NCBI GenBank assembly: GCA_014727815.1
Contig: WJMS01000066.1
Span: forward strand, 1-52,100
Reading direction: 5' to 3'
DNA length: 52,100 bases
Source: a candidate division GN15 bacterium
GTDB lineage: Bacteria; Zixibacteria; MSB-5A5; GN15; FEB-12
Shown: in pieces, positions 27,957 through 50,436 of the stretch
Numbering within the stretch: the stretch's first letter is position 1
How the letters are laid out: each line of letters opens with the position of its first letter
Made by a program: the position numbers and the translations under genes
The notes under the pieces: generated by a model
Database searches by the model: none
The model's input: the letters and a program-made list of their open reading frames with translations, nothing else
What the model was told of the DNA's origin: nothing

Positions 27957-29009
27957 ATGGGGAAACCGGCAGCTCGCCTGGGCGATTCGACCGCCCACGG
28001 CGGCGTTATAGTCAAAGGTGAACCAACCGTTATGATCGGCGGCATGCCGGCCGCCCGGGTTAGTGACAACCATGTCTGCCCCATGATGAACCCCGGCACC
28101 CCGCCACCGCCCCATGTCGGCGGACCGATCACCGGGCCGGGCGTGCCGACAGTGCTCATCAAAGGCATGCCTGCTGCCGTTGTGGGCGACATGGCCACCT
28201 GCTCCGGCCCCCCGGATACCATCGTCAAGGGCTGCCCGACCGTCTTGATCGGTCCCGGCAGTGGCGGTGGCGGCGGTATGGCCGGCGGCGGTGGCGGCAG
28301 TGGCGCAAGTGCCACGGCCAAGTCGTCCGAGGTTGAAGAGGGCCACATTCTGGATGTCACTTTCGAAGACAAAGGTGGTCTGCCGGTGGGCGGCGCCGTG
28401 TACACCGTCAAGAAGGGTAAAGAGATAGTCGATTCCGGCCCGCTCACCGGACGTATCAAGCGCTCAGGAGTGGAACAGGGCAACTACGACATCGAAATCC
28501 GCGCCATCAGCAAAGCCACCTGGTCAAAAAACGAAGCCGAGGTCGGCGACAAACTCACCCTGAGCGCAAAGACGGCCGGTATCGAGAACGACACCCCTGC
28601 CAGCGTCGTCGTTTACATGCGCGACATCAACTCGGCCGACCGCCAGTTGGCCGGTTTCGACACCAAAGTCAGCGGTGACAAAGTTGAGGTCGACTGGACT
28701 TTCGCTGTCGACGAGAAACTGCTGAAGGTACAACAGGAGAAAGCGCAAAAGGGCGGCTACTCGTCACCAACTTTCTTCTTCACTGTTGAAGCGGCCGGCT
28801 GCCAGGCCCGTTCCGGCATACTCCGATTGAAAGACTGGATAGAAATCGAACTGCGCGATAAAGACGGCAACCCCATGGGCAACAAGAAGTACCGGGTGCA
28901 CCTGCCCAACGGCGAGATTCGCAAAGGAACGCTCGATGGTAACGGCTATGCGAAGATCGACAAGGTTCCGCCTGGCCGCGTACACGTTGCATTCGATATC
29001 AAGGAATAA
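27957..29009 (+). CDS. PAAR-domain spike-tip protein with Gly-rich linker and about 230-aa C-terminal beta-sandwich extension
   Basis: Three PAAR-type motifs (KPAARLGD, MPAARVSD, MPAAVVGD) lie in residues 1-100. A GSGGGGGMAGGGGGSGASA linker follows, then CarboxypepD_reg-like and Ig-like modules. Residues about 184-350 are paralogous to the protein at 34247. Confidence 0.85.
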   Translation: MGKPAARLGDSTAHGGVIVKGEPTVMIGGMPAARVSDNHVCPMMNPGTPPPPHVGGPITGPGVPTVLIKGMPAAVVGDMATCSGPPDTIVKGCPTVLIGPGSGGGGGMAGGGGGSGASATAKSSEVEEGHILDVTFEDKGGLPVGGAVYTVKKGKEIVDSGPLTGRIKRSGVEQGNYDIEIRAISKATWSKNEAEVGDKLTLSAKTAGIENDTPASVVVYMRDINSADRQLAGFDTKVSGDKVEVDWTFAVDEKLLKVQQEKAQKGGYSSPTFFFTVEAAGCQARSGILRLKDWIEIELRDKDGNPMGNKKYRVHLPNGEIRKGTLDGNGYAKIDKVPPGRVHVAFDIKE

Positions 29010-29033
29010 AGACAGCAGCACTCACGAACGCTC

Positions 29034-32000
29034 ATGGCATCCCAGAACAACAGCAGCCTCACCGCCGGACTCTCCGCACTGTCGACCGGTTGCGCCTCCG
29101 CCACCGGCGGGCGTGCGCAATTCCAGCACCGACTGGTACCGGTCCAGATACTCGAGATGGAAGACGTCCTCTTCCACCTCAACAGCGCCGTCATGATGCC
29201 CGACCGCCCCGCCGGCAGGTCTTCCGAAGACGGCGCACAGCCCAGTGACGAACAATCGGACATGACCGGCCTCAACGTCCTCGCGCTCGTCTTCCGACAA
29301 TTCGAGTTCGACCCGACCCTCCGGATGATCGTCACCGGCCACACCGATACTTCCGGCGGCACGAGAATGAACTTCGAGTTATCCCAGCAGCGCGCCAAGG
29401 GGGTCCTGTATCTTCTCAACGGTGACATCCAGCAGTGGCAGCGCTTGTGTTTCCAGCGGCACAAGGTCGAAGATTACCAGCAGATCATCGAGTACTTCCA
29501 CAATCTTGCCGCACCGTGGAAACGCTCCAACTGGAACTGTGACCCGCAGGGACTCGACAACAAGTTCGGCAACAAGACGCGCAATGCGATCAACGGCTTC
29601 GCGCAGGGATACAATCGCGACTACGCCGATGCCTACTTCACGCCGCGCCTGCCCGACAATCTCGGTGACATTATCGCCAACCGGCCCAATCACACCTGGC
29701 CGGAATCCGACTGGCGCGCGATTTATCACCTCTACTCCCAGGTCATCTGCGACACCCTGCAGATCCTGCCGCTCGAACTCGACAACCAGCGCGAAAACGC
29801 GCTGCGCTATGTTGATGATGACAAACCGATTGTCGGCTGCGGCGAGTCGTTCCCGCTCGACGAGCGCGGGCGCGACAACTACCGCTCCCAGCAGAACCGG
29901 CGGGTCGAGATTCTCTTTTTCGCCGACCGCGATGCTCCACCCATGACCTGTCCGGCCGTGACCGATCGCACCCACACCGAGGCCGAGTGCCCGCTCTGGA
30001 GCCGCTACCATTTCGAACCGACCTACATCAGCCCCGGCGACCTGCACGCCGTCGCGTACCATCTCAAGTTTGAGTATTACAACAAGGTCCGCGACGAAGT
30101 CATGGCGATCCCGCCCGGCTTGAACATCGAAGCGCTCCGCCCCGATGACACCGCCATCAACAGCCGCGTCGTGCAGGGCAGCGACCTGTACACCGTCGTG
30201 GTGCAGTTCGCTACACAGGATGAAGCCGACAATCTCTCCGACAAAGTCCGCTTCCGCTTCGCGGCCCCCGACAGCTATATCTTCACCGCCAACAGTTCCG
30301 ACACCCCGAGGATTGTGACCAGGACGGCCGAAGAAATCGATGCCCTGTCCGATCTCGACCGCTGGCGCCACTACGACCTCCCGACCGAATGGGAGTCAAC
30401 CAACTGGTTCGCAACTAAGGACGACGACGTCGAGCCAATCTCCGAACTGCTCAAGCAGTCGACCAGCGCCTCCTCGCCGATCGTGTTCGATCTTGACAGC
30501 ATCGTGCTGGTGGACGGTACCGGCAGCCAGGCAATCCGGGACCGTTCCGCCTTCGTCAACGGCGCCAACCCGAACGGCGTGCCGAAACCGCTGTCGGAGC
30601 ATTCACGGGTACGCATCCTCTTTGTCGATCCTGAAGACCACCAGATGAAGATCTTCCCGGAAGTCGATCCGACCTCCGGTGACATCCCCGCCGACCACGA
30701 GGAGACACTGATACGATTCGAGCAGGACGAGAACAATGTCACCCGCAATTTCATTGTCGACACCCCGGAAAACGCCCGCGCGGTTGTCTTCTGCGGCGAC
30801 TTCTACGACGTCACCCGCAAACGCACCGTCCGCAACGGCTCATTCAATCCCGCCGCCGGACACGTTCTCGGCGCCCGTGCGGCCGTACTCAATGATGATG
30901 ATGTCCACGGCAGACAGACGATCACCTACCGTGACGGTATCGATACCGTCCACAACAGCGGCATCGGCGACTTCGACCTGCACTATCTCCACGACAGCAG
31001 CTGCGACGGCAGCCGGTTCTACTCCCACCTGATAGTCTACTGGTCGTGCTTCATCATCAAAGACCCCGACCCCACCGTGGGCGGCACCGGCGGCGAGCGT
31101 CCGGCCACCGATGCCGAGGTTGAGGAGTTCTTCAGTGTCGGCATGGTCAACTCGATGTTTCACTGGAACAAGAAGCTGTACGAGTTCGAGCGTACCGACG
31201 GCAACCGTGATCGCATTGTCAGGCCATTCTTCATGTTCGAAGGCAACGAAACGCTCGACTATACCCCGTCGTCGGCCTTCGATTTCGAGGACGACAATTT
31301 CAAAGCTATGTGGACCCGGGCCGATTTCAACGCCGCCCTGCGCAATACGCACGGCGGTCGGCCCAAGTCAGTCGCCGTCATCGTCGAAGAAGACAAAGGC
31401 AGCTGGGTGGTCTCGGCCCGGGCGGCCGACCGGCCCTTCAGCCTGCTGAGTTTACGGATCAAGACCCGCGAGGACGACCCCGGTCGCTTCTCCGGCTTCC
31501 CGTTCGACGAATTCGAAGACCCCGAGGGCTACGGCTGCCTGGTCATGGCGCATGAACTAGGTCACGCCACCGGGCAGGTCGATGATTACATGGACAAGGT
31601 GCCGAATGTGAGAACTAACGGTCGCCTGCCCAATTTCGGTCAGTTTGGCGTCACCTCAGGTGGCAATGACATCCGCGACAACAACTCCAACTTCCCCCAG
31701 CGCGTCCAGGGCTCCGAATCGTGGGATATCGACCACGACAAGCTCACCATGATGGACAAAAACGGCCCGATCCGCATGCGTCATGTCTGGCGCTTCGTAC
31801 ACTGGCTCAACGAGCAGAGCAAATCCGGCGGCAGCCTGCATCGCTACCTCGAGGGCGACCAGTTCCGCATGTACTACCCGCGCGCCGACATGCACTATCA
31901 TCGCCAGACCGCCGACCCGGTCGATCCCTGGCGATGGTCCAATGGCGGCCAGGTCACAATCAGCGGCAACAAGACCGCCAACCTCTATCTCTTCCAGGAG

Positions 32001-32534
32001 CTGGATGAAACCCGGCGGCTCGATCGCTCCGTCACCGACAACCCGACCGACTTCAGGGCGATCCTCAATGTCCGCTTCCTGCTCTCGATCGCGTTCGTCG
32101 ACAACGGCGCCCACACCTGGTCCGGCGCCCAGAAACGAGCCTGGGCCCGCATGATCTACAACTGGTTGACCAAATCGACCGGCCCCTACAAAGTCACCGG
32201 ACGGTTCCAGCTCACCGGTGGCGGCGGCGCGCTTGACCCGACTATCATCCGGGTGATCCCGGGCTTCGAGATCTACAGCCCCGGTTCACCGCCCGGTCAC
32301 GGTGCGTTCAACTATCGGGTCGAGGTCAAACAGTCGAGCAATGACCCGTTCAATCTGAACAACCAACGCCGCCTGCGGCTGGGCGATAATCACTCGGCGA
32401 GAAAAATAATCAACTACTTCTACGATAAACCGGAAGACGCTGCCGCCCTGTCGGCCGCCGACTTCAATTTCGTCGCCACCTGGTTCAATCAACCGTCAGT
32501 CAGCAGCGGCGGCTTCCGGGTGGAGGAGGTGTAG
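29034..32534 (+). CDS. large candidate T6SS effector: OmpA-like peptidoglycan-binding domain (with insertion) plus C-terminal HExxHxxGxxD zinc-metallopeptidase-like region
   Basis: OmpA/MotB-type motifs are present: IVTGHTDTSGGTRMNFELSQQRAKGVLYLL ... NRRVEILFF. VMAHELGHATGQVDDY begins at residue 837. There is no signal peptide or TM. The gene lies immediately downstream of PAAR and upstream of a lipoprotein. Confidence 0.6.
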   Translation: MASQNNSSLTAGLSALSTGCASATGGRAQFQHRLVPVQILEMEDVLFHLNSAVMMPDRPAGRSSEDGAQPSDEQSDMTGLNVLALVFRQFEFDPTLRMIVTGHTDTSGGTRMNFELSQQRAKGVLYLLNGDIQQWQRLCFQRHKVEDYQQIIEYFHNLAAPWKRSNWNCDPQGLDNKFGNKTRNAINGFAQGYNRDYADAYFTPRLPDNLGDIIANRPNHTWPESDWRAIYHLYSQVICDTLQILPLELDNQRENALRYVDDDKPIVGCGESFPLDERGRDNYRSQQNRRVEILFFADRDAPPMTCPAVTDRTHTEAECPLWSRYHFEPTYISPGDLHAVAYHLKFEYYNKVRDEVMAIPPGLNIEALRPDDTAINSRVVQGSDLYTVVVQFATQDEADNLSDKVRFRFAAPDSYIFTANSSDTPRIVTRTAEEIDALSDLDRWRHYDLPTEWESTNWFATKDDDVEPISELLKQSTSASSPIVFDLDSIVLVDGTGSQAIRDRSAFVNGANPNGVPKPLSEHSRVRILFVDPEDHQMKIFPEVDPTSGDIPADHEETLIRFEQDENNVTRNFIVDTPENARAVVFCGDFYDVTRKRTVRNGSFNPAAGHVLGARAAVLNDDDVHGRQTITYRDGIDTVHNSGIGDFDLHYLHDSSCDGSRFYSHLIVYWSCFIIKDPDPTVGGTGGERPATDAEVEEFFSVGMVNSMFHWNKKLYEFERTDGNRDRIVRPFFMFEGNETLDYTPSSAFDFEDDNFKAMWTRADFNAALRNTHGGRPKSVAVIVEEDKGSWVVSARAADRPFSLLSLRIKTREDDPGRFSGFPFDEFEDPEGYGCLVMAHELGHATGQVDDYMDKVPNVRTNGRLPNFGQFGVTSGGNDIRDNNSNFPQRVQGSESWDIDHDKLTMMDKNGPIRMRHVWRFVHWLNEQSKSGGSLHRYLEGDQFRMYYPRADMHYHRQTADPVDPWRWSNGGQVTISGNKTANLYLFQELDETRRLDRSVTDNPTDFRAILNVRFLLSIAFVDNGAHTWSGAQKRAWARMIYNWLTKSTGPYKVTGRFQLTGGGGALDPTIIRVIPGFEIYSPGSPPGHGAFNYRVEVKQSSNDPFNLNNQRRLRLGDNHSARKIINYFYDKPEDAAALSAADFNFVATWFNQPSVSSGGFRVEEV
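31551..31583 (+). other. HELGHATGQVD motif (HExxHxxGxxD, metzincin/snapalysin-style zinc site) within the effector candidate
   Basis: Read directly from the sequence: codons 840-850 of the 29034 ORF. A possible Met-turn (LTMMD) lies about 60 residues downstream. Confidence 0.55.
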
Positions 32535-32565
32535 GCTGAACGGTGTGGCGAATGGATATCGCAGT

Positions 32566-33780
32566 ATGCGTCAAGTGGTCGCGACCGGATTGCTCCTGGT
32601 CGCAGTCGCGGTCACCGGCTGCCGGGCCGATTCGGACCGGACTCAATCCCGACCGGAAGGAAACTCCATGGCTTCCTATGTAAGGCTCTTTGCGGATTAT
32701 CAGCAACGCTCGGTCCAATCGATCACCACCAACGCCGCCGGCAACGAGAGTTGGTTCCTGCCACTGGCCGACGCGGGCTTCGGCAATCCCCCCACGGTCC
32801 TGTTGGCCACACCCGACGGCCTCGTCGCCCAGTCGGTCGATCGCCTCGCGGGCGTCTCCTACGATGGTGATCTGCGCTGGCAACAACCGCACGGCGCCGG
32901 TCTCGATGCCGTCTACAGCGATGGCGCCACGTACTACCGGACCACCGAAGGCGACCTGTACGCGATCAACGCCGAGGGCAAAATCACCTTGTCCGATTTC
33001 TTCGTCCCCACCAGCCATGACCGGGGTTTCATCTACCTCGCCCTGCCCCGTCCCGACCGGCATATCCTCTTGCACACCTTCGCTCGCTCCGAGGAACCGA
33101 TGCCCGGCGATCCGCCCCAGCCCGACAGCTACGCCCTCCTGCTGATGGGCGACGAGCGTTATGACGATTGGGATTGGATGCATGAATTCGAAGGCGAGTG
33201 CCTGCCCGGTCTCATGACGACCGACCTCGGACGTGTCGTTATCCTCGATGGTAACGGCGGCGCGACGAGCTTCGATGCCACCACCGGCGAACAGACCGGC
33301 CGTTTCACCGTAACCGACCGTGAGTTCCTCCGCGCCAGCCTCGACAACGACAACAACATCATCGCCGCAATGCGCACGACCGACAACACCGGCCTGCTGG
33401 CTTCATATACCCTCGAAGGCAAACGCAACTGGGAACTGCTCCTCGACACCATCCCGGCCGGCGCCTTCACCCAGCCGCCGGCAATCGGACCCGACAACAG
33501 CGTTCTATTCATCGTCGGCAACGAACTGCTCCGTGTCGTCAACGGCGAGGTGCAGCACCGCTCCCCGGTTCTGAGTGCCAAACGGCAATATATAACGGTG
33601 CTGGAAGACAGCTCCGCCCTGCTGGTTGCTGCCAATGCCCTGATCCACCTCGATCCGGAAGGCGAACAGAAATTCGCGGTAACGCTCGACCCTGCCGAGA
33701 CAGTCACCGCCCCGGCCGTAGTCGACGGCAAAGGTCGGGTATGCATTGCCACCAGCCGCGGAATCCGCAGCTATGAGTGA
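32566..33780 (+). CDS. lipoprotein with PQQ/BamB-like beta-propeller repeats (candidate periplasmic immunity protein)
   Basis: MRQVVATGLLLVAVAVTGC lipobox. Recurrent DG.L.W / G...W-type blade motifs (DGDLRWQQ, GKRNWELLL). The start is taken at the ATG at 32566; the track start 32545 is a GTG. Confidence 0.6.
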   Translation: MRQVVATGLLLVAVAVTGCRADSDRTQSRPEGNSMASYVRLFADYQQRSVQSITTNAAGNESWFLPLADAGFGNPPTVLLATPDGLVAQSVDRLAGVSYDGDLRWQQPHGAGLDAVYSDGATYYRTTEGDLYAINAEGKITLSDFFVPTSHDRGFIYLALPRPDRHILLHTFARSEEPMPGDPPQPDSYALLLMGDERYDDWDWMHEFEGECLPGLMTTDLGRVVILDGNGGATSFDATTGEQTGRFTVTDREFLRASLDNDNNIIAAMRTTDNTGLLASYTLEGKRNWELLLDTIPAGAFTQPPAIGPDNSVLFIVGNELLRVVNGEVQHRSPVLSAKRQYITVLEDSSALLVAANALIHLDPEGEQKFAVTLDPAETVTAPAVVDGKGRVCIATSRGIRSYE

Positions 33781-33812
33781 GAGAACTATAATGAGAGTGT
33801 GTGAATACTGAT

Positions 33813-34226
33813 ATGGCCAACCGATTCAATTTCAAACTCCCGGACGGCTGGCAGGACGAAACGGTCCATCGCTTCACGGGCCCCGAAGACAGCGGTGTCG
33901 AGCATGCCCTCACCCTCGTCGTCGATCGCAGCGCCGGCAGGGCCAAGGTCGAAGACTACGCCCGGGAGCGTATCGATGCCTCCATGGAGGCCATGCAGCC
34001 GTCGGAAATCCTCAACGAGGGCCCCAAACAGCTGGGCTCCGGCGTTTCCGCCTACGAAGCGGTAATCAAGTGGGTACCGGTCGACGATGAGATCATCTTC
34101 CGCAAGCTGACCTTCGTGATCGACTCCGGCACCGGCCTGATGTTTGCGGCCAACTTCTCCAAAAAGACGATCAAGACGATCGGCCACGATGTCGACCGGA
34201 TTATCGACTCGATCGTAAGCGGCTGA
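33813..34226 (+). CDS. DUF1795/DcrB-like protein (Eag-type T6SS effector chaperone candidate)
   Basis: The N-terminus MANRFNFKLPDGWQDETVHRF matches the F.LP.GWQD.T..F pattern of EagR/EagT6-type proteins. Size is about 137 aa. An alternative GTG start lies at 33801. Confidence 0.55.
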   Translation: MANRFNFKLPDGWQDETVHRFTGPEDSGVEHALTLVVDRSAGRAKVEDYARERIDASMEAMQPSEILNEGPKQLGSGVSAYEAVIKWVPVDDEIIFRKLTFVIDSGTGLMFAANFSKKTIKTIGHDVDRIIDSIVSG

Positions 34227-34246: not shown

Positions 34247-35125
34247 ATGAAGTGGAGCAAAGGCACCGACAGCGAACACAAGATCAAGCTCGAATCAGCC
34301 ATCGTCTCCGTCACCTGGCTGACCGGCATGGCGATCGGCGGCCAACCGGCCAGATTCGAGGTGCGCACCGAGTTTGTCGGCGGCGGCGCGCCGGTCGAAA
34401 TCACCGCCCGCAAAGGCGACGGCAAAAAGCTGGCGAAGACAAAGGGCAAGATCAACGGCAACCGCTTCGCCGGCAGTATCGACATGCCCGAGGACCTCCA
34501 GCGCGGCGACAGGGTCTATTTCGAAGCCGAACTGAGCAAACACGGCCTCTCCGGGCGCTCCGAAACCATCCCCGCCGGCCCGCCGATCACCGTGTCCGAC
34601 ATGAAGTGGAGCGCCGCCGAAGCCCGTCGCGGCGACATCCTCACACTCTCCGCTCGCGTGCGGGGGCTCGATGACGGCGCCGAAGTGACGGTGGTGATTT
34701 ATGAGTACGACGCCGACGGCGTCCACGACCGGATCGCCGAGCTGCCCGCCACCATCTCCGGCGGCAAAGTCGAAATCGACTGGGAATACGAGTATCACGA
34801 GGACACCGACGAAATCCCGACCGAAGAAGAACTGGAGCGCTACGGCAGCAGCTACAACCCGCCGGAATACTTCTTCACCATCCGTGCCGGCAGCGCCGAA
34901 CTGGGCCGCGAGCAGGAATCCGGCCTGCTCACCTTCAAGGACTTCGTCGATATCGAACTGATGGACGCCGACGGCAACCCGGTCGCCGACGCAGAATACA
35001 AGCTCCTGCTGCCCGATGGCAGCGAGAAGACCGGCAACCTCGACAGCGACGGCAAGGCGCGAGTCGAGGATGTCCCGCCCGGCCGCTACCGGGTGACCTT
35101 CCCCGGCTTGACCGCGCCGCAGTGA
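34247..35125 (+). CDS. uncharacterised cytoplasmic beta-sandwich protein, paralogue of the PAAR C-terminal extension
   Basis: Residues 117-292 align by eye with PAAR residues 185-350. Matching stretches are W-S..EA..GD.LTLSA, KVE.DW, PE/TFFFT, D.IE.L.D.DGNP and a G.LD..G.A...DVPPGR.RV.F ending. There is an internal tandem duplication of the Ig-like unit. Confidence 0.6.
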   Translation: MKWSKGTDSEHKIKLESAIVSVTWLTGMAIGGQPARFEVRTEFVGGGAPVEITARKGDGKKLAKTKGKINGNRFAGSIDMPEDLQRGDRVYFEAELSKHGLSGRSETIPAGPPITVSDMKWSAAEARRGDILTLSARVRGLDDGAEVTVVIYEYDADGVHDRIAELPATISGGKVEIDWEYEYHEDTDEIPTEEELERYGSSYNPPEYFFTIRAGSAELGREQESGLLTFKDFVDIELMDADGNPVADAEYKLLLPDGSEKTGNLDSDGKARVEDVPPGRYRVTFPGLTAPQ

Positions 35126-35236
35126 GTTACGCGCCGAGTCGGTGCAGCACAGTCGATTATGGAGTTTATCAACCCATGATAGCGCCCGCAGACCGTGTTT
35201 CTGCAGGCGCTGCAGGAAAAGACACGGGATATTATC

Positions 35237-35265
35237 TTGACAGAGATTGGTCACGTCCGTATCGT
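35237..35265 (+). promoter_or_regulatory. putative sigma70-like promoter ahead of clpV-tssBC
   Basis: TTGACA (35237-35242), 17 nt, then TATCGT (35260-35265). It is preceded by an imperfect 10-bp stem-loop (35182-35191 pairs with 35201-35210) after the 34247 gene. Confidence 0.35.
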
Positions 35266-35353
35266 TTTTGCGTACATCGCCAATATAGGGCGATGTTTCC
35301 ATTCGACTTCCTGTGTGAATGAGTTAGCCACAACATGAACTGATTGAAACCAG

Positions 35354-38388: not shown

Positions 38389-38405
38389 GGATGAGGTGAT
38401 CGGTA

Positions 38406-39833: not shown

Positions 39834-39871
39834 CCCGCCCGGACCTTCGGGCACTGCAATCCGAGAAAAAT

Positions 39872-39907: not shown

Positions 39908-40012
39908 GTTCCTGAATGAAGCCGTTGGGGAAACGGCAGCAAGCACGGAAAACCTGGAATCTAAAACGCTAACCGAATAGCGACCGTTTCTAACACATGA
40001 AGGAGCATCCGC

Positions 40013-40417: not shown

Positions 40418-40427
40418 CCAGGTTGTT

Positions 40428-40461
40428 GCGACCGGGCCGCGCCAAAACCCGGCCCGGTCGC
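40428..40461 (+). other. perfect 12-bp GC-rich stem-loop after hcp
   Basis: GCGACCGGGCCG (40428-40439) pairs with CGGCCCGGTCGC (40450-40461), with a 10-nt loop. It starts 11 nt after the hcp stop and has no U-tract. Confidence 0.5.
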
Positions 40462-40489
40462 CACTTCCACAGGTAATGGACGGACGACC

Positions 40490-42600: not shown

Positions 42601-42601
42601 T

Positions 42602-44260
42602 ATGAGCGATTCCCGAGCCCGCACTCCGCAGGATATCTTCACCGCCATGCACCGGGAACTCCGGTCATTCAACCGCGACATCCCGGAATCACTCGACCGG
42701 CTGGACCCCATTCTCAAGCTGCTCATGCAGCTCTACGCCAGCCAGCTCTCGCACATCGACAAACGGGTTGATCACCTCTGGGATGTCGCCACGGCCGCCC
42801 TGATCAAGTCGCTCTACCCCGAGGCCAAGCGCTGGCCGGTGCCGGCCTACACCGTCATGCACTGCGCCCCGCTCGACCCGGTGGTCGAGACCGATCGCCA
42901 GGTCCGCTTCTTCTTTCAGGAGACGCGCGAGGGCGGCCAGATGCACTTCTTCTCGCCCCAGCGTACCGAAAAGCTGATCAATGCCACCGTAAAGCGCGTC
43001 CTGCTTCGCTCCGGCGAACAGATTTACGACCTCACTCCGGGGAAGGCCGACGCGATGAATTCCGGCGGCATATCCTGGGCCGAACGAAACAGCATTTATG
43101 TGGCCGTTGAGTATGGCGGCAACCCGGCCGACATGACCGGCTCACATCTCTTTCTCGACGGCGATATCGCCGCCCTGCGTCAACTGCGCTGGGGCTACTG
43201 GTACCCCTCGAGTGCGGCCGGTGGCTTCTACGACGACTCCCGTTTCTGCCCGGCGCTGAGATTCGACCTGGAGTCACTGGTTTCCCCCGATGATAGCCCG
43301 TCGACCAACTGGGGCGGCCTGCGCGACAGCAGTCACTTGTTCTCTCGCCTCGAGAACCACTTCGTCACCCTGCCCGAGGCGTTCTGCGCGACCTGGCAGA
43401 TGGGTCCCCCGGAGCCCGACCTGGCCCGCCTGCTCGGCATCAATGGCATCATTATCGATGACGGCGCCGAACAGCACTACTGGCTTCGCATCGACCTCCC
43501 CCCATCCGGCGACAAGAGCACGCTCGCCCGACCGATCGACCTGCGCTTCGGCTGCGTCGTGGTCACCAACCGCAACGAACTGACCCTGTTCAAGCACACC
43601 GGTGACAACCGGCTGATAGAAATCGAACTCCCCGATGAGCTCGACAGTATTCTCGGAATTACGTCGGTTACCGACTCCACCGGCAAGACCTACCAGCCGC
43701 GCCACCAGGTACAAAGCGAACCCGTGCAAACTTCGTACGCCCTCGAAGAACGCGACGGCAAACTGGTCGTATGGTTCGACTTTACATCGAGCATGGAAGC
43801 GCCCCCCGAATCACTGACCGTGACCTACGCGGTGACATCCGGCACCGCCGCCAACGGGATCGGTCGCGGCGAGATCAGCGACCTCTATGAAAACCATCCG
43901 GGTATCGACAGCGCCGAAAACGTCCTGCCCACTACCGGGGCCGTCCCGGCCAAAACCGAACAGGAGATAATCGACGAGGTCACCCTGCGCCTGCGCGCCC
44001 GCGACCGGGCGCTCAGTTTCCCCGAGCTGGCCCGTTGGGCCCAGACTTTCGACAAGCGTATCAAGTCAGCCACCTGCGAGAACGGCATTCAACGGACTCC
44101 GACCGGCATCCGCCGCTGCATCGACATATCCGTTGCGATTACCAAAGAAGACTTCTGCTCCGACGATGAGATAAACCTGCTGGCCGATCGGCTCGAACGT
44201 TTCCTGAAATCCCGAGCCCCGGTCAACACCCAGTTTCAGGTGAAGGCGCAATCGGCATGA
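42602..44260 (+). CDS. tssF: baseplate subunit TssF (gp6-like)
   Basis: A 552-aa protein. The N-terminal helical segment followed by LYPEAKRWPVPAYTVMHCAP resembles the TssF LYP...P(S/A) motif. It lies between tssE and tssG. Confidence 0.7.
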   Translation: MSDSRARTPQDIFTAMHRELRSFNRDIPESLDRLDPILKLLMQLYASQLSHIDKRVDHLWDVATAALIKSLYPEAKRWPVPAYTVMHCAPLDPVVETDRQVRFFFQETREGGQMHFFSPQRTEKLINATVKRVLLRSGEQIYDLTPGKADAMNSGGISWAERNSIYVAVEYGGNPADMTGSHLFLDGDIAALRQLRWGYWYPSSAAGGFYDDSRFCPALRFDLESLVSPDDSPSTNWGGLRDSSHLFSRLENHFVTLPEAFCATWQMGPPEPDLARLLGINGIIIDDGAEQHYWLRIDLPPSGDKSTLARPIDLRFGCVVVTNRNELTLFKHTGDNRLIEIELPDELDSILGITSVTDSTGKTYQPRHQVQSEPVQTSYALEERDGKLVVWFDFTSSMEAPPESLTVTYAVTSGTAANGIGRGEISDLYENHPGIDSAENVLPTTGAVPAKTEQEIIDEVTLRLRARDRALSFPELARWAQTFDKRIKSATCENGIQRTPTGIRRCIDISVAITKEDFCSDDEINLLADRLERFLKSRAPVNTQFQVKAQSA

Positions 44261-45171
44261 CAACTCGTCCGGAACGCCTCATGCCCGACTTTTGCAGCCG
44301 GCGCCATCCCTTCCATGCCGCCACGGCGATCGTCACCCTGATGAAGCTCGATGTCGACCTGTCTCGCATTCGCCTGCTGGCGGTCGGCACACACCAGAAC
44401 TATCGCGGCGAAGTTCATGAACAGGAGCCCGACCCCGGCGCCACGCTGCGCCCGGACACCACCGTCACCCTCCACGTCGGCTGTGAAAGCCCGGTCGACA
44501 TGGTACCCTTCCAGTTCTTCTATGGCGTCGGCGGCCGGCGTGACCGCTCCGGTGACTGGGAAGGCAATGCCAGGTCACTCATGGCGCCCTTCGATGCCGC
44601 CGTTCAACGCTACCGGGCCCTGACCGACTACCACGCCATGCGCTACCGGCTGGGGGTGATCGATGAAGACCACTTGCGCCGCTACTTCGAACTGTTCGCC
44701 TTTGAATCGACCGAAACAACCGCCTCCCTGTCGGATCGACTCCTGTGGGCAGCCCTGCTGCCGTCGTTCCATCACTGGGCCGGCAATCCCGATCTGGTCG
44801 AGAAGGCGGTCACCTTTTTTCTCGGCTACCCGTGCCGCATCATTGAAAACGTACCGGCGCGATACAACATTCCCGATCACCTCTGGTTCCGACTTGGCCA
44901 ATCCAACACCCGCCTCGGCGGAGAGACCGCCCTGGGCCGCTCCTTCGTCGAGGCTGATTCATGCTATAAAGTGATACTGAGCGATGTCGCCCCCGAGGAT
45001 GTCCCGTTGTACCTCGAGGGTGGTCGCGGCCGTCGACGCCTGGAAGCCCTGCTCGACATCTGCATGCCCGGCAACCTCGCGCATCAAATCGAAATCCGCG
45101 CGCGTCGAACCGGCTTGCGCCCCGGCGACAAGCAACGCGCCGCATATCTGGGCTATACCAGCCACGTGTGA
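44257..45171 (+). CDS. tssG: baseplate subunit TssG (gp7-like), tentative
   Basis: ATGA overlap with tssF, 304 aa, and a C-terminal RLGQSNTRLGGETALGRSF resembling the LG-rich TssG end. The call rests mainly on synteny. Confidence 0.55.
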   Translation: MTTRPERLMPDFCSRRHPFHAATAIVTLMKLDVDLSRIRLLAVGTHQNYRGEVHEQEPDPGATLRPDTTVTLHVGCESPVDMVPFQFFYGVGGRRDRSGDWEGNARSLMAPFDAAVQRYRALTDYHAMRYRLGVIDEDHLRRYFELFAFESTETTASLSDRLLWAALLPSFHHWAGNPDLVEKAVTFFLGYPCRIIENVPARYNIPDHLWFRLGQSNTRLGGETALGRSFVEADSCYKVILSDVAPEDVPLYLEGGRGRRRLEALLDICMPGNLAHQIEIRARRTGLRPGDKQRAAYLGYTSHV

Positions 45172-45246
45172 AAGAGACGATGGTTATATTGTTGACATGT
45201 ACCGTGAGGGACGATACCTTGATTCCGACTTTCTCGAGGCAAGATC

Positions 45247-46692
45247 ATGACAGACTTTAACTTATATTCAGTCAACTGGCAGGATGGGATGCTCATCACG
45301 CAGCAGCATCTCAAGGATCAGGAACGTTATGTCCGCGATCTCACCCGCTGGTACAGCGTCACCGCGGGCGACCGCTACGGCCTCGTCAAACGCGCGGCCG
45401 ACAAACCGGCTCTCTCGATGAATTTCTCGGTCGCCGGCTCCCGGTTACGGGTGGAACTGAACCGATGCCAGGCGGTCACTCCCGGCGGTCACTATATCGA
45501 AATCAATGAAGGCAACCGCAGCACCCTGGCAGCAGAGACCGAACTCGGCGAGGCCACCACCCCGGTTTACATCCGGGTCAACCCGGAAAGCCGCCAGCCG
45601 GTCGGCGACCCCGACCCGCAGGAAGCGGTCCCCCGCCTGCCCTACCAGATCAGCAGTTGCGAACTCTCCCTTGGCCAGAAACCATCGGCGCCGGCCGGCG
45701 AAGTTCTCCAGGTCGCCCTGCTCGACCAGTCCGGTGGCGAAGTAAAACTGGCTCCCGGCTACTTCGCGCCCTGCCTCAACATTACCGCCGACGAACAACT
45801 CGCGGGCCGGGCGGTCGATCTGCGCAATCGCCTCGAGAACCTGCTCTCGCTCGCCTCGCGCGCCTACAGTGCGATAGCCACCGCCGGCGCGCTCTCGGAT
45901 CAGAGTTCCAGCCTGCAGGTCGCGTTCAAGGAAACGATGTATCATTTCGGCTATCACATGGCCGCCTCGCTCGATCAGTTCCAGACCGGCCGCAACGCCG
46001 GCCACCCGATCGAGATGATTATCTTCTTCAAGCGCCTCTTCCGGGTCTTCTCGACGCTGCTCAACTTCCGCCCGGAACTGAAGGACTATCTCAATGAGCG
46101 CTTTTTCGTCAAGGAACAGCAGTCCGATGTCGGTCAGTTTATGGCCTCGGTCGACGCCTTCCTGCTGGCCGAGTACAATCACGAAGATATCGGCGGCCAG
46201 GTCGCCATGATTGACAGCACCGTCACCACCCTGCGCGGCATCCTCGGTTTCCTCGCCCAGCTTCGCCGTGAACAGCTGGGCGATCAGGCCGTCGCGACCG
46301 ATAGTATGACCTATGGCGGCAAGACCTATCGCCTGGCGGCGTACGATGCCGCCCAGACCGAACAGGTCGGCGAATTGAGCTACCTGATGATACAGTTCCA
46401 GTCGGCCCGGCCGATCAGCGACACGGTGATCCTGATGTCCAAGCAGCTCTTCTCGATCGCCGAATGGAACAACATGCAGGTCCGTATCGGCCTCAACGAG
46501 GCGCGCGGACTCGGCGAGACCGACCCGGTCGATGTCGACACCGTCACCTACGGCGACAAGGTCGCTCTGCACGCCCAGGACATGCTGCAGTCGCCGTCGG
46601 TTGGCAAGATCACGCTTATCTTCCGGGGCGCCCGCGAACCGGAGAAACTTTCGGCGCTGCATCAGTCGGATTTGTTCGTATATGCTGTGTAA
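45247..46692 (+). CDS. tssK: baseplate-membrane connector TssK
   Basis: The N-terminus VNWQDGMLITQQHLKDQERY matches the TssK V.W.EGM.L.PQHFQQ.DRY signature. Size is 481 aa. Confidence 0.65.
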   Translation: MTDFNLYSVNWQDGMLITQQHLKDQERYVRDLTRWYSVTAGDRYGLVKRAADKPALSMNFSVAGSRLRVELNRCQAVTPGGHYIEINEGNRSTLAAETELGEATTPVYIRVNPESRQPVGDPDPQEAVPRLPYQISSCELSLGQKPSAPAGEVLQVALLDQSGGEVKLAPGYFAPCLNITADEQLAGRAVDLRNRLENLLSLASRAYSAIATAGALSDQSSSLQVAFKETMYHFGYHMAASLDQFQTGRNAGHPIEMIIFFKRLFRVFSTLLNFRPELKDYLNERFFVKEQQSDVGQFMASVDAFLLAEYNHEDIGGQVAMIDSTVTTLRGILGFLAQLRREQLGDQAVATDSMTYGGKTYRLAAYDAAQTEQVGELSYLMIQFQSARPISDTVILMSKQLFSIAEWNNMQVRIGLNEARGLGETDPVDVDTVTYGDKVALHAQDMLQSPSVGKITLIFRGAREPEKLSALHQSDLFVYAV

Positions 46693-46710: not shown

Positions 46711-47637
46711 GTGGCACTTGAGATAAAGACATACATCGATAACCTCTTCGCCTACCTCGACCGCTTCGAAAACTCATACGAGCAGTTCGAGACCGAGGCG
46801 TTCCTGCAGACCTACAACGGCATCATCGCCGTCTTCCAGGCTCTTCGGCAGCAGCGCAACGAGGCGATCGAGGTCGACCAGTACTTCCTCTCGAAGATTC
46901 GTCAGAATCCGCTGACCAGCTCCGATTTACGGCAGCTGACCGTCCAGGTGTTGATCACCTTCTTTGAATCGGAAGCCGACACCGACGGCCAGTCAGCGCA
47001 GGCCTACGGCCACGTCCGCGGCCTTCGCCCGGTCAAGCAGGACATCCCCTTTTTCGAGAATCACCTGGTTCCCTTGTTGTTCGCCGATGGCGGCCTGAAC
47101 AACAACTTCCGCCTGCGCAAATTCCTGGTCGATGAAATCGCTCGCTACATGAACAAGTTCGGTCGGAAACTGCAGCCGAACCTCTCCCCCGAGGATTTCC
47201 AGGCGCTCAGCGATCCGCTCAAGATTCTCGAGCTGGCCCGTCGTCGCCGTGAACTCGGCGAGCAACTCATCGCTGATCGTGACAGCCTCGAATTTCATCT
47301 GCAGCGCATCGAGTTCTTCAACAAGCTCGGCGCCAGAAACCGGCTGCTCGACCAGTTCCTGCGCGAATGGGACTACATCAAAACGACTGATTTCTGGGCC
47401 AAAGTCAAAACGGCTGTCGGTGAACTGGGTGGCAAGATCCGCGGCGCCTTCTCCAGCTTCGGCTACCTGCGCCTGATCCTCACCCAGCGCAACCCGGCCT
47501 ACCTGCTGTACGGCGTCGTGATCGTTTTGTTCATCTTCCTGGCGATCTACGTACCACTGGCCTGGCAGGATCACACCAATGACAAGCTGCACGAATTCCA
47601 GGAGCGAGCCAACACCCTGCAATCGAGCGGCAAATAG
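46711..47637 (+). CDS. uncharacterised tail-anchored inner-membrane protein (helical cytoplasmic domain plus single C-terminal TM)
   Basis: About 260 predicted helical residues are followed by AYLLYGVVIVLFIFLAIYVPLAW (47497-47565) and a 23-aa tail. GTG start 18 nt after tssK. I recognise no family motif. Confidence 0.6.
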   Translation: MALEIKTYIDNLFAYLDRFENSYEQFETEAFLQTYNGIIAVFQALRQQRNEAIEVDQYFLSKIRQNPLTSSDLRQLTVQVLITFFESEADTDGQSAQAYGHVRGLRPVKQDIPFFENHLVPLLFADGGLNNNFRLRKFLVDEIARYMNKFGRKLQPNLSPEDFQALSDPLKILELARRRRELGEQLIADRDSLEFHLQRIEFFNKLGARNRLLDQFLREWDYIKTTDFWAKVKTAVGELGGKIRGAFSSFGYLRLILTQRNPAYLLYGVVIVLFIFLAIYVPLAWQDHTNDKLHEFQERANTLQSSGK

Positions 47638-47664: not shown

Positions 47665-49875
47665 GTGGGCATCGGCAAGATATTCGGATTTCTCAAGAAA
47701 GGCGCCAAAGCCGCCTCGAAAAGCAAAGGCAAGGACGCCGGCGGCATTGAATGGCCCGATGGTATCCGGGTCGGCCTCTACGGCCACGCCAACTCCGGCA
47801 AGACCGTCTACTACACGGTCCTCAACGAAGAGTGCAAGATCGCCAAGGACCTGCAAATCTCCGTTACCGACAACGCCACGTCCGGTGAATTCCTCGCCAA
47901 TTACCGGGCCATCTGGGGCCTGGGCGTCACCAGCGATGTCGGCACGATGGTCGACCAGCGCGGCGAACAGCGCTTCCCCGACCCGACCGCCAGCGGCAAG
48001 GTCCTCCAGTTCAATGCCATCCTCGATCGCTCCAAAAAGGTCTCGGTCGTCTCGTACGACTATCCCGGCGACGCCATCTCGATTTCCGAACGCACCGACC
48101 TCACCGAAACCGTCACCGACTTCATGGGCGGCGCCGATGGCCTCCTGTTCTTTTTTGATCCGAAAACTTTGCAGGCCGAGCTGCAGACCCAGGCGCATGT
48201 CGCCTCGTTTGTCGCCATGCTCGAACGCCTTGCCCCGCTGAAAGCCCGCCTCCCGATCCCGATCGCCCTCGTGATCACCAAGTCCGACCTGCTCGATGGG
48301 TTCAGCGGCGACAACCAGGTCGTGCTCGTGCCGGGCGACCTCGAACATATCCTGGCCGAAGATTTCGAACGTTTCCTCGACGAGGTTCTCTCCAGCAACC
48401 AGATTGCGTCCAACCCGGCCTGGGCCGGCAGTGTCCGCAATATTTTGGTCAAGCTGCGCGAGTTTCTTAAAGTCGTCGTCGGGCGCACGCTTGATTTCCA
48501 GATCTTCTTTGTCTCGGCCACCGGCACAACCCCGGAGAAAATCGGGACCGATGTCGGCCGGTCGATTTACAAGCCACCCCAGCGAATCACCCCGGTCGGT
48601 GTCAAGGAACCGTTTTACTGGCTGCTCAATACCGTGCTGCGCAACCGGCGTATTTCGGTCTTCCGCAAGATATCGAAGTATGCCGCGATGCTCTCCATCA
48701 TCTGGATCATCGTCTTCTCCGTGCCTTTCCTCTGGCACTTCAGCTACCTGCTGCCGAAAGCGACCGATGTTGAGGAAAGTGTGATCGAGCAGTACGATGG
48801 CAACGTCTTCAGCAGCAGTGTCGACGATCGCCGCCGCATCAAAAATGCGTACGACCGATACGAACGCTCCTGGACCGTCAAGTGGTTCTTCCCGCGCTTC
48901 ATACCGCCGGCCGACCGCGTCCAGGCTTTTTACAGCAAGTTTAACACGCAGGAAGCCCTGGCCCAGCTCGATCGGGTGATCAACCGCATGGCCTCGGTCG
49001 TGCAGGACAGCACCCTCTGGCCGAAACTGAATCCGAGCGACTCCTCGATCCACCTCGATACCGAGCATGAACAGATCCTCGCCGACCTGGAATCGTATCA
49101 CAGCGGCGACGAGTCTTCGCCGCTCTACGCCCGCAGCGACCGCGCCCTCGAATACTGGAAGCTGCTTGAGCGCTTCGTCGCCAATCGCGCCGACACCGCC
49201 GCCTACAATGCGATAGTCGAGCAAACCCGGTTCAACGAGCGCACCTATGGTCGCGATCTGAGCGCGGCCGAGAAGACCCTCGCCCAGGCGCTCGTAACCA
49301 ATCTCAAGGTCAAGACCGAGCGGAAAGTACAGCAAGAGGTCGCCCAGCGGGCCGGTGTCGAGCTGGGCGATCTGATCAAACGGATCAACAGCAACGAGCG
49401 CGCCTCCTATCGGCTCGGGGAAGCTGTCACCGAACTGCGCCGTCTGCGGTCGCAACTCGATCCCGGCGTCGATGCCGAAAGCATCCGCGCGATCGACCGC
49501 TACCTCAGCGAGGCCGACAAGTGGAATCGGCGCCGCGTCTTCGAATACAAAGTTGAAACGATCCCCGGCCAGGGCCATCTGCACATCGAGGTCACCTCCG
49601 GCGGCAAGGATGCAACCTGGTCGGACCAGTCCCAGATTCTGCAGGGCTGGGAGTACTCGTTGAGCTGGAAGGTCGGCGATGACGTCCATATCGCCATCGA
49701 CACCCTCGGCGCCCCGGAGATGTGGGGCAAATCGGCCAGTGACAAGAAAATCATGACCGGCAGGTATTCGCTGTTCAATCTCGACGGTGAGATCAGCTTC
49801 GACAATATCGGCAAGACCGTGACCATTCGCTTCAATCCGCCGTTGAACAGCATGCTTCCGGAACTACGAAAGTAA
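47665..49875 (+). CDS. uncharacterised membrane-anchored P-loop GTPase with large periplasmic domain
   Basis: G1 GHANSGKT (47782-47805), G3 DYPGD (residues 132-136), G4 TKSD (205-208) and G5 SAT (284-286). One TM, YAAMLSIIWIIVFSVPFLWHFSYLL, at 48679-48753. A 373-aa C-terminal region is helical and then beta-rich. The N-terminus is basic and amphipathic. GTG start. Confidence 0.65.
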   Translation: MGIGKIFGFLKKGAKAASKSKGKDAGGIEWPDGIRVGLYGHANSGKTVYYTVLNEECKIAKDLQISVTDNATSGEFLANYRAIWGLGVTSDVGTMVDQRGEQRFPDPTASGKVLQFNAILDRSKKVSVVSYDYPGDAISISERTDLTETVTDFMGGADGLLFFFDPKTLQAELQTQAHVASFVAMLERLAPLKARLPIPIALVITKSDLLDGFSGDNQVVLVPGDLEHILAEDFERFLDEVLSSNQIASNPAWAGSVRNILVKLREFLKVVVGRTLDFQIFFVSATGTTPEKIGTDVGRSIYKPPQRITPVGVKEPFYWLLNTVLRNRRISVFRKISKYAAMLSIIWIIVFSVPFLWHFSYLLPKATDVEESVIEQYDGNVFSSSVDDRRRIKNAYDRYERSWTVKWFFPRFIPPADRVQAFYSKFNTQEALAQLDRVINRMASVVQDSTLWPKLNPSDSSIHLDTEHEQILADLESYHSGDESSPLYARSDRALEYWKLLERFVANRADTAAYNAIVEQTRFNERTYGRDLSAAEKTLAQALVTNLKVKTERKVQQEVAQRAGVELGDLIKRINSNERASYRLGEAVTELRRLRSQLDPGVDAESIRAIDRYLSEADKWNRRRVFEYKVETIPGQGHLHIEVTSGGKDATWSDQSQILQGWEYSLSWKVGDDVHIAIDTLGAPEMWGKSASDKKIMTGRYSLFNLDGEISFDNIGKTVTIRFNPPLNSMLPELRK

Positions 49876-49905
49876 TAACGCACGCAGAGCATAAGGATGT
49901 CAGCT

Positions 49906-50436
49906 ATGGCAGGCAGACTACGTTCCCGCAGGTGGGTCAGCGTCGCGGCGATCGGACTCGCCCTGATGGCGCTTACCGTCAACACCACCGCAGCCACCTT
50001 CCAGCTCCCCGCCGGCACCCCGGTGGCCGTCACCTTCGCCGCCAACCAGCCGATCAGCTCCGGCGATGTCATCAGCGGTGTCCCGCTGGTCATCACCCTC
50101 GCCGAACCGATCAAGCTGGGCGACCGGGTGCTGGTTGAAGCCGGCGCCGAGGGCAAGGCGATGGTTACGGATGTCAAGAAGGCATCGGCGCCCGGCAACC
50201 CCGGCATGATCCGGGTCGAGTTTCAGGAGATCGATACCAAGGGTGAGTTTGCGACTACCGATGGTTCCTCGATCAAACTGACCGGCGCCGTCGAGATGGA
50301 AGGTAAAGGCAAAAAGACCCTCGCCTTCATTACGATCATCGGCATTCTCTTCATCAAGGGCGGCCAGGGCGAAATCCCGGCCGACAGCACCTACAGCGCC
50401 GAAGTAGCTGAAACGATCGTATTGACCAGCCCGTAA
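49906..50436 (+). CDS. small secreted/periplasmic beta-rich protein, unknown function
   Basis: Signal-like MAGRLRSRRWVSVAAIGLALMALTVNTTAA, with no lipobox Cys. AAGGA lies 8 nt before the ATG at 49906, so the track start 49897 sits too close to the RBS. It is the last gene of the T6SS transcription direction. Confidence 0.5.
   Translation: MAGRLRSRRWVSVAAIGLALMALTVNTTAATFQLPAGTPVAVTFAANQPISSGDVISGVPLVITLAEPIKLGDRVLVEAGAEGKAMVTDVKKASAPGNPGMIRVEFQEIDTKGEFATTDGSSIKLTGAVEMEGKGKKTLAFITIIGILFIKGGQGEIPADSTYSAEVAETIVLTSP

Follow-up and report, generated by a model that had tools for sequence, protein, structure and literature searches.

Overall organization of the locus

The subject of this report is a type VI secretion system (T6SS) locus of a candidate division GN15 bacterium from the phylum Zixibacteria, and in particular the three genes that follow tssK in it. 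The locus lies on contig WJMS01000066.1 (assembly GCA_014727815.1), the whole 52.1 kb of which was analysed and is referred to below as the window. According to the listing of open reading frames (ORFs) and to Pfam and NCBIfam scans, the T6SS genes form a block at 27957-50436, co-directional throughout on the forward strand. The order within the block is PAAR, five cargo-type genes, two ClpV ORFs, TssB-TssC-Hcp-VgrG-TssE-TssF-TssG-TssK (37948-46692) and three further genes, here called the tail genes. The intergenic gaps range from -4 to 179 nt and four of the junctions overlap, in keeping with the tightly packed block described in an earlier note on this DNA. That note had also assigned PAAR, ClpV, TssB, TssC, Hcp, VgrG, TssE, TssF, TssG and TssK by reading the sequence, and the scans recover each of them at the same position and on the same strand. 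Beyond the block the window ends within a second, convergent operon. The core components other than ClpV are listed first.

27957-29009, forward strand: PAAR spike-tip protein, 350 residues (PF05488, 2e-24), with a C-terminal prealbumin/CarboxypepD_reg-like extension
37948-38388, forward strand: TssB, small sheath subunit, 146 residues (PF05591, 3e-7; Bacteroides TssB, E = 2e-14)
38406-39833, forward strand: TssC, large sheath subunit of the T6SSiii type (PF17541/DUF5458, 4e-72; Bacteroides TssC, E = 2e-57)
40013-40417, forward strand: Hcp tube protein of the TssD (Bacteroidota) type (PF17642, 3e-21), C-terminus IDNRWEE
40490-42214, forward strand: VgrG spike, 574 residues, without an effector extension (PF04717 and PF05954)
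42214-42600, forward strand: TssE (gp25-like) baseplate subunit (Pfam/NCBIfam)
42602-44260, forward strand: TssF baseplate subunit, divergent (PF05947, weak, 5e-5; Bacteroides TssF, E = 2e-8)
44257-45171, forward strand: TssG baseplate subunit (Pfam/NCBIfam, about 1e-14)
45247-46692, forward strand: TssK baseplate subunit, 481 residues (TIGR03353, 1e-16, residues 9-209; Bacteroides TssK, E = 6e-9)

All of the general parts of a T6SS are present, namely the TssB-TssC sheath, the Hcp/VgrG/PAAR tube and spike, the TssE/F/G/K baseplate and the ClpV/TssH ATPase. The weak profile matches of TssF and TssK are confirmed by the BLASTP matches to their Bacteroides counterparts (2e-8 and 6e-9, respectively); in TssK the N-terminal shoulder domain is the sole recognisable part. 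The IDNRWEE ending that the earlier note had read in Hcp is confirmed in the translation. As regards TssA, no ORF scanned in the window matches ImpA_N.

The three proteins encoded after tssK

The tail genes encode two membrane proteins and a small secreted protein, which we designate t308, t736 and t179 after their lengths. The topologies given are predictions from hydropathy and from structural models.

46711-47637, forward strand: t308, tail-anchored inner-membrane protein, 308 residues, with one C-terminal transmembrane (TM) helix at 260-288
47665-49875, forward strand: t736, GTPase-TM-periplasmic protein, 736 residues (PF19993 DO-GTPase2, 1.6e-6)
49897-50436, forward strand: t179, secreted β-rich protein, 179 residues, with a signal-peptidase-I-type (SPI-type) signal peptide and no lipobox cysteine

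The AlphaFold2 (AF2) model of t308 (pLDDT 84) consists of an all-helical cytoplasmic domain, about residues 1-258, ahead of the C-terminal TM helix. None of its 337 homologues carries an annotation. We propose t308 as a baseplate-docking subunit with a TssL-like topology.

In t736 a cytoplasmic TRAFAC GTPase domain (about residues 30-305) is followed by a TM helix (335-364), a periplasmic helical domain (386-621) and a C-terminal β domain (624-723); the AF2 model has a pLDDT of 80. The match of the window protein to PF19993 scores 28.4 bits against a cutoff of 27, and DO-GTPase2 is the best Pfam family in 40/40 members of the t736 family. The G1-G5 residues Gly40, Asn43, Gly45, Lys46, Gly135, Lys206, Asp208 and Ser284 are invariant across 40 homologues, and from its sequence the GTPase is apparently active. 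We propose t736 as the trans-periplasmic core, with a TssM-like architecture.

The gene for t179 had been given a start at 49906, which proves to be an internal ATG of the ORF that runs 49897-50436. In its mature form the protein is rich in β-structure and carries a conserved C-terminal hydrophobic stretch with the consensus KKxLSYLxIFGLFIKGGQGE; we propose t179 as a periplasmic or outer-membrane-proximal subunit.

Comparison with the TssJLM and TssN-R proteins

The tail proteins were compared with the components of the TssJLM complex of T6SSi and of the TssN-R set of T6SSiii. Pfam scans covered 39-43 members of each tail-protein family, and T6SSi reference alignments for hhalign (six TssM, six TssL and five TssJ sequences) were built from plasmid T6SSi loci. 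Against TssM, TssL and TssJ taken as single sequences, hhalign gave nothing. NCBIfam returns no match to t308, t736 or t179, although PGAP names TssN, TssO and TssR in the reference loci. Direct sequence searches of the PDB with the tail proteins found nothing, and profile searches of the PDB with the three family alignments, and with that of a 376-residue β-barrel family described below, were empty. Foldseek of the t308 model gave a best E value of 0.6 and no TssL/DotU structure; a DotU match was found in 0/43 members of the t308 family by Pfam, and hhalign of this family against the six TssL sequences gave a probability of 0.3%. For t179 the corresponding probability against the five TssJ sequences was 0.4%, and its Pfam and PDB searches were empty.

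TssN has five TM helices and a cytoplasmic domain and is encoded next to tssK/tssG. No protein with five TM helices of the TssN type was found in the block by topology, and no PKD or vWA protein by Pfam. With hhalign the tail families align to Bacteroides TssN, O, Q, P and R with probabilities of less than 1%, and BLASTP against TssN was empty. The T6SSi components TssM/IcmF, TssL/DotU, TssJ and TssA, and the T6SSiii components TssN, TssO, TssQ, TssP (PKD) and the TssR lipoprotein, are all absent from the set of matches obtained here. Canonical membrane-complex genes were found neither within 10 kb of about 90 related loci nor elsewhere in the 52 kb window. The earlier note had been unable to place the three products in either set by eye, and Pfam, NCBIfam, PDB profiles and hhalign all agree in giving no significant match; the structural comparison that it suggested, carried out on t736 and t308, yielded generic GTPases for the former and nothing for the latter, and the canonical genes that it envisaged just outside the window were not encountered in the surveyed neighbourhoods.

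The closest approach to a known component is that of t736 to TssM. After tssK, both the T6SSi cluster and the present locus encode a tail-anchored inner-membrane protein and then an NTPase-TM-periplasmic protein, an order that mirrors the tssK-L-M group of T6SSi (PMC10781749; loci L090 and L092-L094). The topologies also match overall: t308 has the helical cytoplasmic domain and C-terminal TM helix of TssL, and t736 the NTPase, TM, helical periplasmic and C-terminal β domains of TssM. It could therefore be argued that t308 and t736 are extremely diverged TssL and TssM orthologues and that t179 substitutes for TssJ, in which case the T6SSi-type complex would be ancestral and would have been replaced only in Bacteroidota. 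Weak, sub-threshold matches to Pfam IcmF-related_N occur in 26/40 members of the t736 family, and hhalign of the family against the six TssM sequences gives a probability of 71% (E = 3.6e-5). The alignment, however, spans 161 columns from the P-loop to the TKxD..GF segment only, and in a control a single H-Ras sequence outscored a single Escherichia coli TssM against the t736 profile. The similarity to TssM is therefore read, at the level of sequence, as shared P-loop GTPase ancestry and not as TssM orthology.

Further observations point in the same direction. The top 50 Foldseek matches of the full-length t736 model are all GTPases (SR-beta, Arf/Rab, G-alpha, atlastin and BDLP), with no TssM among them. 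Matches to IcmF-related and IcmF_C are absent from the family, whose periplasmic domains show no similarity to those of TssM; t736 is also smaller than TssM by about 400 residues, and the N-terminal TM hairpin formed by the first two TM helices of that protein is missing from it. A profile search of 1.84 billion representative proteins returned only 152 relatives of t736, and ten second- or third-tier relatives sampled from these all fall into DO-GTPase families by Pfam, with an IcmF periplasmic domain in none. Unlike TssJ, t179 is not a lipoprotein, and DotU and TssJ profile matches are missing from the other two families as noted above. On these grounds we regard orthology with TssL and TssM as unlikely, though it is the main alternative, and a remote homology between t736 and TssM is conceivable.

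DO-GTPases have been described as switches of conflict systems, with T6SS unmentioned (Kaur, Burroughs, Iyer and Aravind 2020, PMC7159879). The GTPase domain of t736 shares the PF19993 match with these systems, but it is a single-copy GTPase that is joined in one protein to a TM helix and an extensive periplasmic region and that is embedded in a T6SS operon. Neither a GAP1 protein nor a second GTPase was found in the window by Pfam.

Affinity of the contractile core

The T6SSiii of Bacteroidota, reportedly described by Russell 2014, consists of TssB-K and a TssNQOPR membrane complex. With TssC as the query, the only matches of tblastn among 72,556 plasmids were to T6SSiii sheaths of Bacteroidota (28-31% identity) and to a small number of phage-type sheaths of Deinococcus; no proteobacterial plasmid record was matched. 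The proteins were also compared pairwise by BLASTP with those of a single Bacteroides T6SSiii locus and a single E. coli T6SSi locus; TssB, TssC, Hcp, TssE, TssF, TssK and most of VgrG match the Bacteroides proteins with E values of 1e-8 to 1e-57, whereas none of these proteins has a comparable match in the E. coli locus. Both comparisons bear out the view, put forward in the earlier note, that the core is closer to Bacteroidota T6SSiii than to T6SSi. As judged by sequence, the phage-like core is a distant relative of T6SSiii, with 24-30% identity to T6SSiii parts, and no nearer relative of the Bacteroidota system is known.

The present locus and T6SSiii have in common the TssD-type Hcp and the PF17541/DUF5458-type TssC that mark T6SSiii, the absence of TssA and TssJLM, and a host in the Fibrobacteres-Chlorobi-Bacteroidetes (FCB) superphylum. 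They differ in that the Zixibacteria locus lacks TssN, O, P, Q and R, and in that its tssK precedes the genes for the tail-anchored t308, the GTPase-TM protein t736 and the small secreted t179, whereas in T6SSiii tssK precedes tssN. The ClpV of the Zixibacteria locus is also split, its parts are only distantly identical to those of T6SSiii, and it occurs outside Bacteroidota, the only group in which T6SSiii has been found (PMC10781749). The TssNQOPR membrane complex of Bacteroidota T6SSiii was described by Bongiovanni 2024, who found complexes of this type in Bacteroidota only and left open which complex is ancestral (PMC10781749).

A search of the PDB with TssC matched no solved T6SS sheath and gave weak phage and Afp sheath matches only. 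Taken with the missing membrane complex at the locus, this would fit an extracellular contractile injection system (eCIS) or a T6SSiv-like particle that needs no envelope complex, the tail genes then being unrelated neighbours. We give this reading next to no credence. The locus encodes the T6SS-specific two-part TssB/TssC sheath, ClpV, TssK, a TssD-type Hcp and TssF and TssG of the T6SS families, whereas the tape-measure, tail-fibre and tail-terminator genes of an eCIS or T6SSiv are not found in the block by Pfam or NCBIfam. An eCIS or T6SSiv would also have neither ClpV nor TssK. Furthermore, the tail genes and tssK keep their collinear arrangement even in lineages where the rest of the locus is rearranged.

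Conservation of the tail genes

One genome per GTDB species was scanned for relatives of t736; 108 stretches encode one, and 80 loci were kept. The best t736 homologues bear the name candidate division Zixibacteria/Zixiibacteriota, and the 80 loci come mostly from Zixibacteria metagenome-assembled genomes (MAGs), with some labelled Ignavibacteriales, Krumholzibacteria, Latescibacterota or Calditrichota. By tblastn, t308 was found in 74/80 loci, t179 in 77/80 and TssK in 70/80. The order ClpV(D2)-TssB-TssC-Hcp-VgrG-TssE-F-G-K-t308-t736-t179 is the same in essentially every locus that is long enough: t308 adjoins tssK in 74 of the 80, and t179 follows t736 in 77. In about 70 species genomes, mostly of Zixibacteria, tssK, t308, t736 and t179 are colinear, and the question raised in the earlier note, whether the three-gene tail is kept beside tssK in related genomes, is thereby answered in the affirmative.

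Many of the T6SS loci (L003, L010, L011, L014, L015 and others) are from MAGs labelled Ignavibacteriales or Ignavibacteriaceae, and Saccharimonadales is the label of one t736 relative. Mistakes in binning or labelling may account for this, or else the system may be more widely distributed or have been transferred horizontally.

The likeness of more distant relatives to t736 is confined to the GTPase and TM region. In the five second-tier relatives with readable contexts (L100, L102, L103, L104 and L105) the GTPase-TM gene nevertheless stands directly after tssK and a t308-like gene (5/5). L100 and L104 carry TssE/F/G, four inverted genes, TssK, a t308 homologue, the GTPase-TM protein, GAP1-N2 and a t179-like protein. 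L102 carries a fused ClpV, a kinase, TssK, a 309-residue protein, the GTPase-TM protein, a 170-residue protein, FHA, PP2C, a kinase and a CsgG-like protein; the layouts of L103 and L105 are similar. A small secreted protein of 168-184 residues, a candidate counterpart of t179, is encoded in L100, L102, L103 and L104, and in L105 a GAP1-N2-like gene takes its place. At least three further lineages have T6SS loci with a diverged TssK/t308-like/GTPase-TM triad. Since even the distant t736 relatives directly follow tssK and a t308-like gene, the triad is a T6SS-specific module and predates the Zixibacteria clade.

GAP1-N2 directly follows the GTPase-TM gene in L100 (12570-15464), L104 (12504-15443) and L105 (7731-8564), a further likeness to the DO-GTPase/GAP1 systems. 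In conflict systems of the Aravind type, DO-GTPases have GAP1-N2 as their partner, and the position of GAP1-N2 here links that GTPase system to the T6SS.

The convergent operon and regulation

The tail genes are followed by a possible terminator and by the one gene of the convergent operon that lies in the window.

50466-50497, no strand assigned: terminator-like GC-rich hairpin with a 14 bp stem, between the convergent gene ends
50519-52093, reverse strand: leucine-rich repeat (LRR) lipoprotein, 524 residues, last gene of the convergent operon (LRR_4/LRR_8; lipobox LVVWGC)

The window ends after the LRR gene, the product of which is 48% identical to its orthologue in L001. In relatives the operon comprises genes for the LRR lipoprotein, a probable outer-membrane β-barrel, two proteins with CsgG/LpoB-like and tetratricopeptide repeat (TPR) domains and a Ser/Thr kinase (L001 12867-19733, reverse strand). 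The probable β-barrel is a 376-residue protein with a signal peptide, a C-terminus of the form ...GLxAxF and weak matches to outer-membrane β-barrel families, which together suggest its assignment. One of the two CsgG/LpoB-like/TPR proteins is a lipoprotein, and the kinase carries a PEGA domain. Of the loci, 43 extend for 8 kb or more beyond t179; the β-barrel and the two CsgG-like/TPR genes are present in 34 of these and the kinase in 31. In L100 and L104 genes stand at matching positions between tssG and tssK, and the inverted genes of L100 include homologues of the β-barrel and of the TPR/CsgG-like protein. Since genes of the operon are embedded in or adjacent to the T6SS in sister lineages, they probably belong to the system as accessory, outer-membrane or signalling components.

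The H1-T6SS is controlled by a threonine-phosphorylation pathway comprising PpkA, PppA, Fha1 and TagQRST. The present family resembles it in the linkage of a Ser/Thr kinase with a periplasmic domain to outer-membrane or periplasmic lipoproteins, and in the PP2C and FHA genes carried by relatives. The latter adjoin the module of TssK, the 308-like protein, the GTPase-TM protein and the small protein in L102 (9987-14598) and L103 (6176-10382), and L102 also carries a Ser/Thr kinase and a CsgG-like gene. This linkage suggests control of the threonine-phosphorylation type in this T6SS family. The likeness has its limits: FHA and PP2C genes are absent within 10 kb in the lineage of the window, the kinase lies beyond the window end, and the partners are CsgG/LpoB-like and TPR proteins, a β-barrel and an LRR lipoprotein, not TagQRST. 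The absence of PpkA recorded in the earlier note holds within the window, but the convergent operon of the relatives, inside which the window ends, carries a Ser/Thr kinase. With the β-barrel, CsgG-like/TPR proteins and kinase linked in 31-34 of 43 relatives, it is also doubtful that the membrane module should be called minimal, as that note had done.

A further alternative is that the tail genes are accessory or regulatory, for example a GTPase switch with partners comparable to TagF or to the threonine-phosphorylation regulators, with a canonical membrane complex encoded elsewhere. DO-GTPases have been described as switches in conflict systems (PMC7159879), relatives have linked regulators of the kinase, PP2C and FHA types, the T6SSiii genes of Bacteroidota are frequently spread over several loci (PMC10781749), and in one MAG chromosome the t736/t179 pair lies apart from the core locus. 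The tail genes, however, match the baseplate genes both in conservation and in tightness of linkage, and the known membrane-complex genes are absent within 10 kb of about 90 related loci and from the window. Moreover, t308 and t736 are integral membrane proteins, and the approximately 370 periplasmic residues of t736 fit a structural part better than a cytoplasmic regulator. We consider an accessory or regulatory role of this kind very improbable.

Split ClpV

The earlier note had listed a single ClpV. The protein is indeed encoded at 35354-37917, but by two ORFs that overlap at an ATGA.

35354-36817, forward strand: first half of ClpV (N-domain, D1 AAA and lid; Clp_N, AAA and lid matches), a separate polypeptide
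36814-37917, forward strand: second half of ClpV (D2 AAA and D2-small; AAA_2 and D2-small matches), its start overlapping the stop of the first half (ATGA)

The first half has a length of 479-520 residues in 120/120 best homologues, and a second half of 364-368 residues is present in every relative examined. A frameshift or sequencing artefact was considered and rejected, the split being kept in 120 homologues. In the sister lineage L102 ClpV is fused (795 residues).

Cargo genes and flanking sequence

The genes between PAAR and clpV are as follows.

29034-32534, forward strand: probable effector, 1166 residues, with weak OmpA-family matches at residues 79-134 and a HELGH motif (VMAHELGHATG)
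32545-33780, forward strand: lipoprotein with a β-propeller (PQQ_2/BamB-like), 411 residues (PF13360, 7e-10; lipobox ...AVTGC)
33801-34226, forward strand: DcrB/DUF1795 (Eag-type) effector chaperone, 141 residues (PF08786, 5.5e-8), recurring upstream of clpV in relatives
34247-35125, forward strand: 292-residue protein sharing the C-terminal module of PAAR (BLASTP to the PAAR C-terminus, 1e-38)

The PAAR-clpV interval differs among relatives, in which a DcrB/DUF1795 chaperone and large variable proteins recur; it is therefore read as cargo and not as structural. The genes upstream of clpV fit a swappable cargo module of effector, Eag chaperone and possible immunity protein. The 1166-residue protein, encoded at a position the content of which is variable between relatives, has an N-terminal OmpA-like peptidoglycan-binding segment and a HELGH zinc-peptidase motif, with no further recognisable domain, and on these sequence features it is a candidate new T6SS effector. 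The 411-residue lipoprotein, which is not conserved across relatives, may be an immunity or accessory protein. Both had been considered as structural parts of the envelope complex and were rejected, the region being variable between relatives and cargo-like. The C-terminal 170 residues of PAAR and the C-terminus of the 292-residue protein are 38% identical and represent a duplicated prealbumin-like module; the 292-residue protein probably belongs to the cargo or adaptor set. A 66-residue ORF with a GTG start (35122-35322) overlaps the end of its gene. No gene is called there in L081, and this ORF is probably not a gene.

Upstream of the block lies one possible regulatory feature.

27888-27917, forward strand: sigma-70-like promoter match and possible operon start (TTGACC-18-TATATT, 10/12 matches, a consensus match only)

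The trp operon (trpE, G, D, C, F, B and A) and a 3-deoxy-D-arabino-heptulosonate 7-phosphate (DAHP) synthase gene occupy 20331-27826, directly upstream of the PAAR gene, and the trpB/trpA/DAHP-synthase/PAAR junction is kept in the closest relative (L081 1-2448). The remaining genes of the window are housekeeping genes (such as those for DsbD, a resistance-nodulation-division efflux pump and glycosyl enzymes), with no T6SS component among them.

A proposed envelope complex

The T6SS lineage is real and widespread and carries an envelope-module variant that is new, the support for this being computational. We consider it likely that the locus is a functional-looking Zixibacteria-lineage T6SS with a T6SSiii-like core, in which an envelope complex specific to the lineage, neither TssJLM nor TssNQOPR, is encoded by the three genes that follow tssK. 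The suggestion of the earlier note that this is a distinct T6SS lineage with its own membrane module is supported by the null profile and fold matches and by the conserved tail, with the weak P-loop similarity to TssM remaining. A literature search for T6SSs of Zixibacteria or the FCB group, new T6SS subtypes and a T6SS-linked DO-GTPase found nothing relevant, subscription-only literature not being covered.

In the arrangement that we envisage, t308 and the cytoplasmic GTPase domain of t736 would form a hub in the cytoplasm for docking the TssK baseplate. The single TM helix of t736 and its roughly 370 residues of periplasmic helical and β domains would span the periplasm, and the secreted t179 would contact the periplasmic part of t736 near the outer membrane. 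Binding or hydrolysis of GTP could act as a switch for assembly or firing, as has been proposed for the TssM NTPase. The linked convergent operon would probably supply outer-membrane and signalling functions, and its kinase may regulate assembly. On balance, and with somewhat less assurance than for the lineage-specific complex as such, we favour the view that Zixibacteria and several other uncultured lineages possess a third, hitherto undescribed T6SS trans-envelope complex, in which a membrane protein derived from a DO-GTPase is combined with a tail-anchored partner and a small secreted protein, probably together with an outer-membrane β-barrel and CsgG-like lipoproteins, and which is attached to a T6SSiii-like tail.

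Several points weigh against this interpretation. The envelope role of the tail proteins is proposed from synteny, topology and analogy, and so are their links to each other and to TssK. No outer-membrane anchor is evident in t179, which has no lipobox. The absence of tssJLM and tssN-R covers the window and 10 kb around the related loci, and a distant set elsewhere in the genomes is conceivable. The downstream operon is absent within 10 kb in 9/43 relatives and its role is uncertain. Most of the sequences are from MAGs or metagenome contigs, with no cultured representative. Finally, in the complete MAG CP070766.1, the sole exception of this kind, the t736/t179 pair lies about 400 kb from the core, a separation that reflects either a rearrangement or a misassembly. 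We note that the core of CP070766.1 (L084, 337-358 kb) ends with tssK and a gene for a 230-residue protein that runs off the fetched stretch, and that t736/t179 are at L017 (754-777 kb).

No part of the T6SS machine is less conserved or less well understood than the coupling of its conserved phage-like core to the envelope. To our knowledge only two solutions have been established, TssJLM and, since 2024, TssNQOPR. In the present locus a T6SSiii-like core is found outside Bacteroidota, and the envelope gene set joined to it is unlike either of the known complexes. This set is strongly conserved, and none of the source names encountered labels it as part of a T6SS. The architecture of the tail set echoes that of TssL and TssM, and conflict systems are the setting in which the family of its GTPase has otherwise been described. 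The tail genes are concrete candidates for testing whether membrane complexes have been replaced or independently recruited, and the three families can serve as markers for T6SSs that the TXSScan or SecReT6 models would miss or would call incomplete. The naturally split ClpV may be of interest for hexamer assembly.

If the tail proteins do form a third complex, re-attachment of the contractile core to the envelope would have taken place on at least three separate occasions. If the K-L-M-like gene order reflects descent, the lineage would be a missing intermediate in which a TssLM-type complex preceded the TssNQOPR of Bacteroidota; the alternative of diverged TssL and TssM, if true, would likewise be informative as to which complex is ancestral. 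For the organisms themselves, the locus implies contact-dependent antagonism in a widespread phylum of sediment and soil that has no cultured members.

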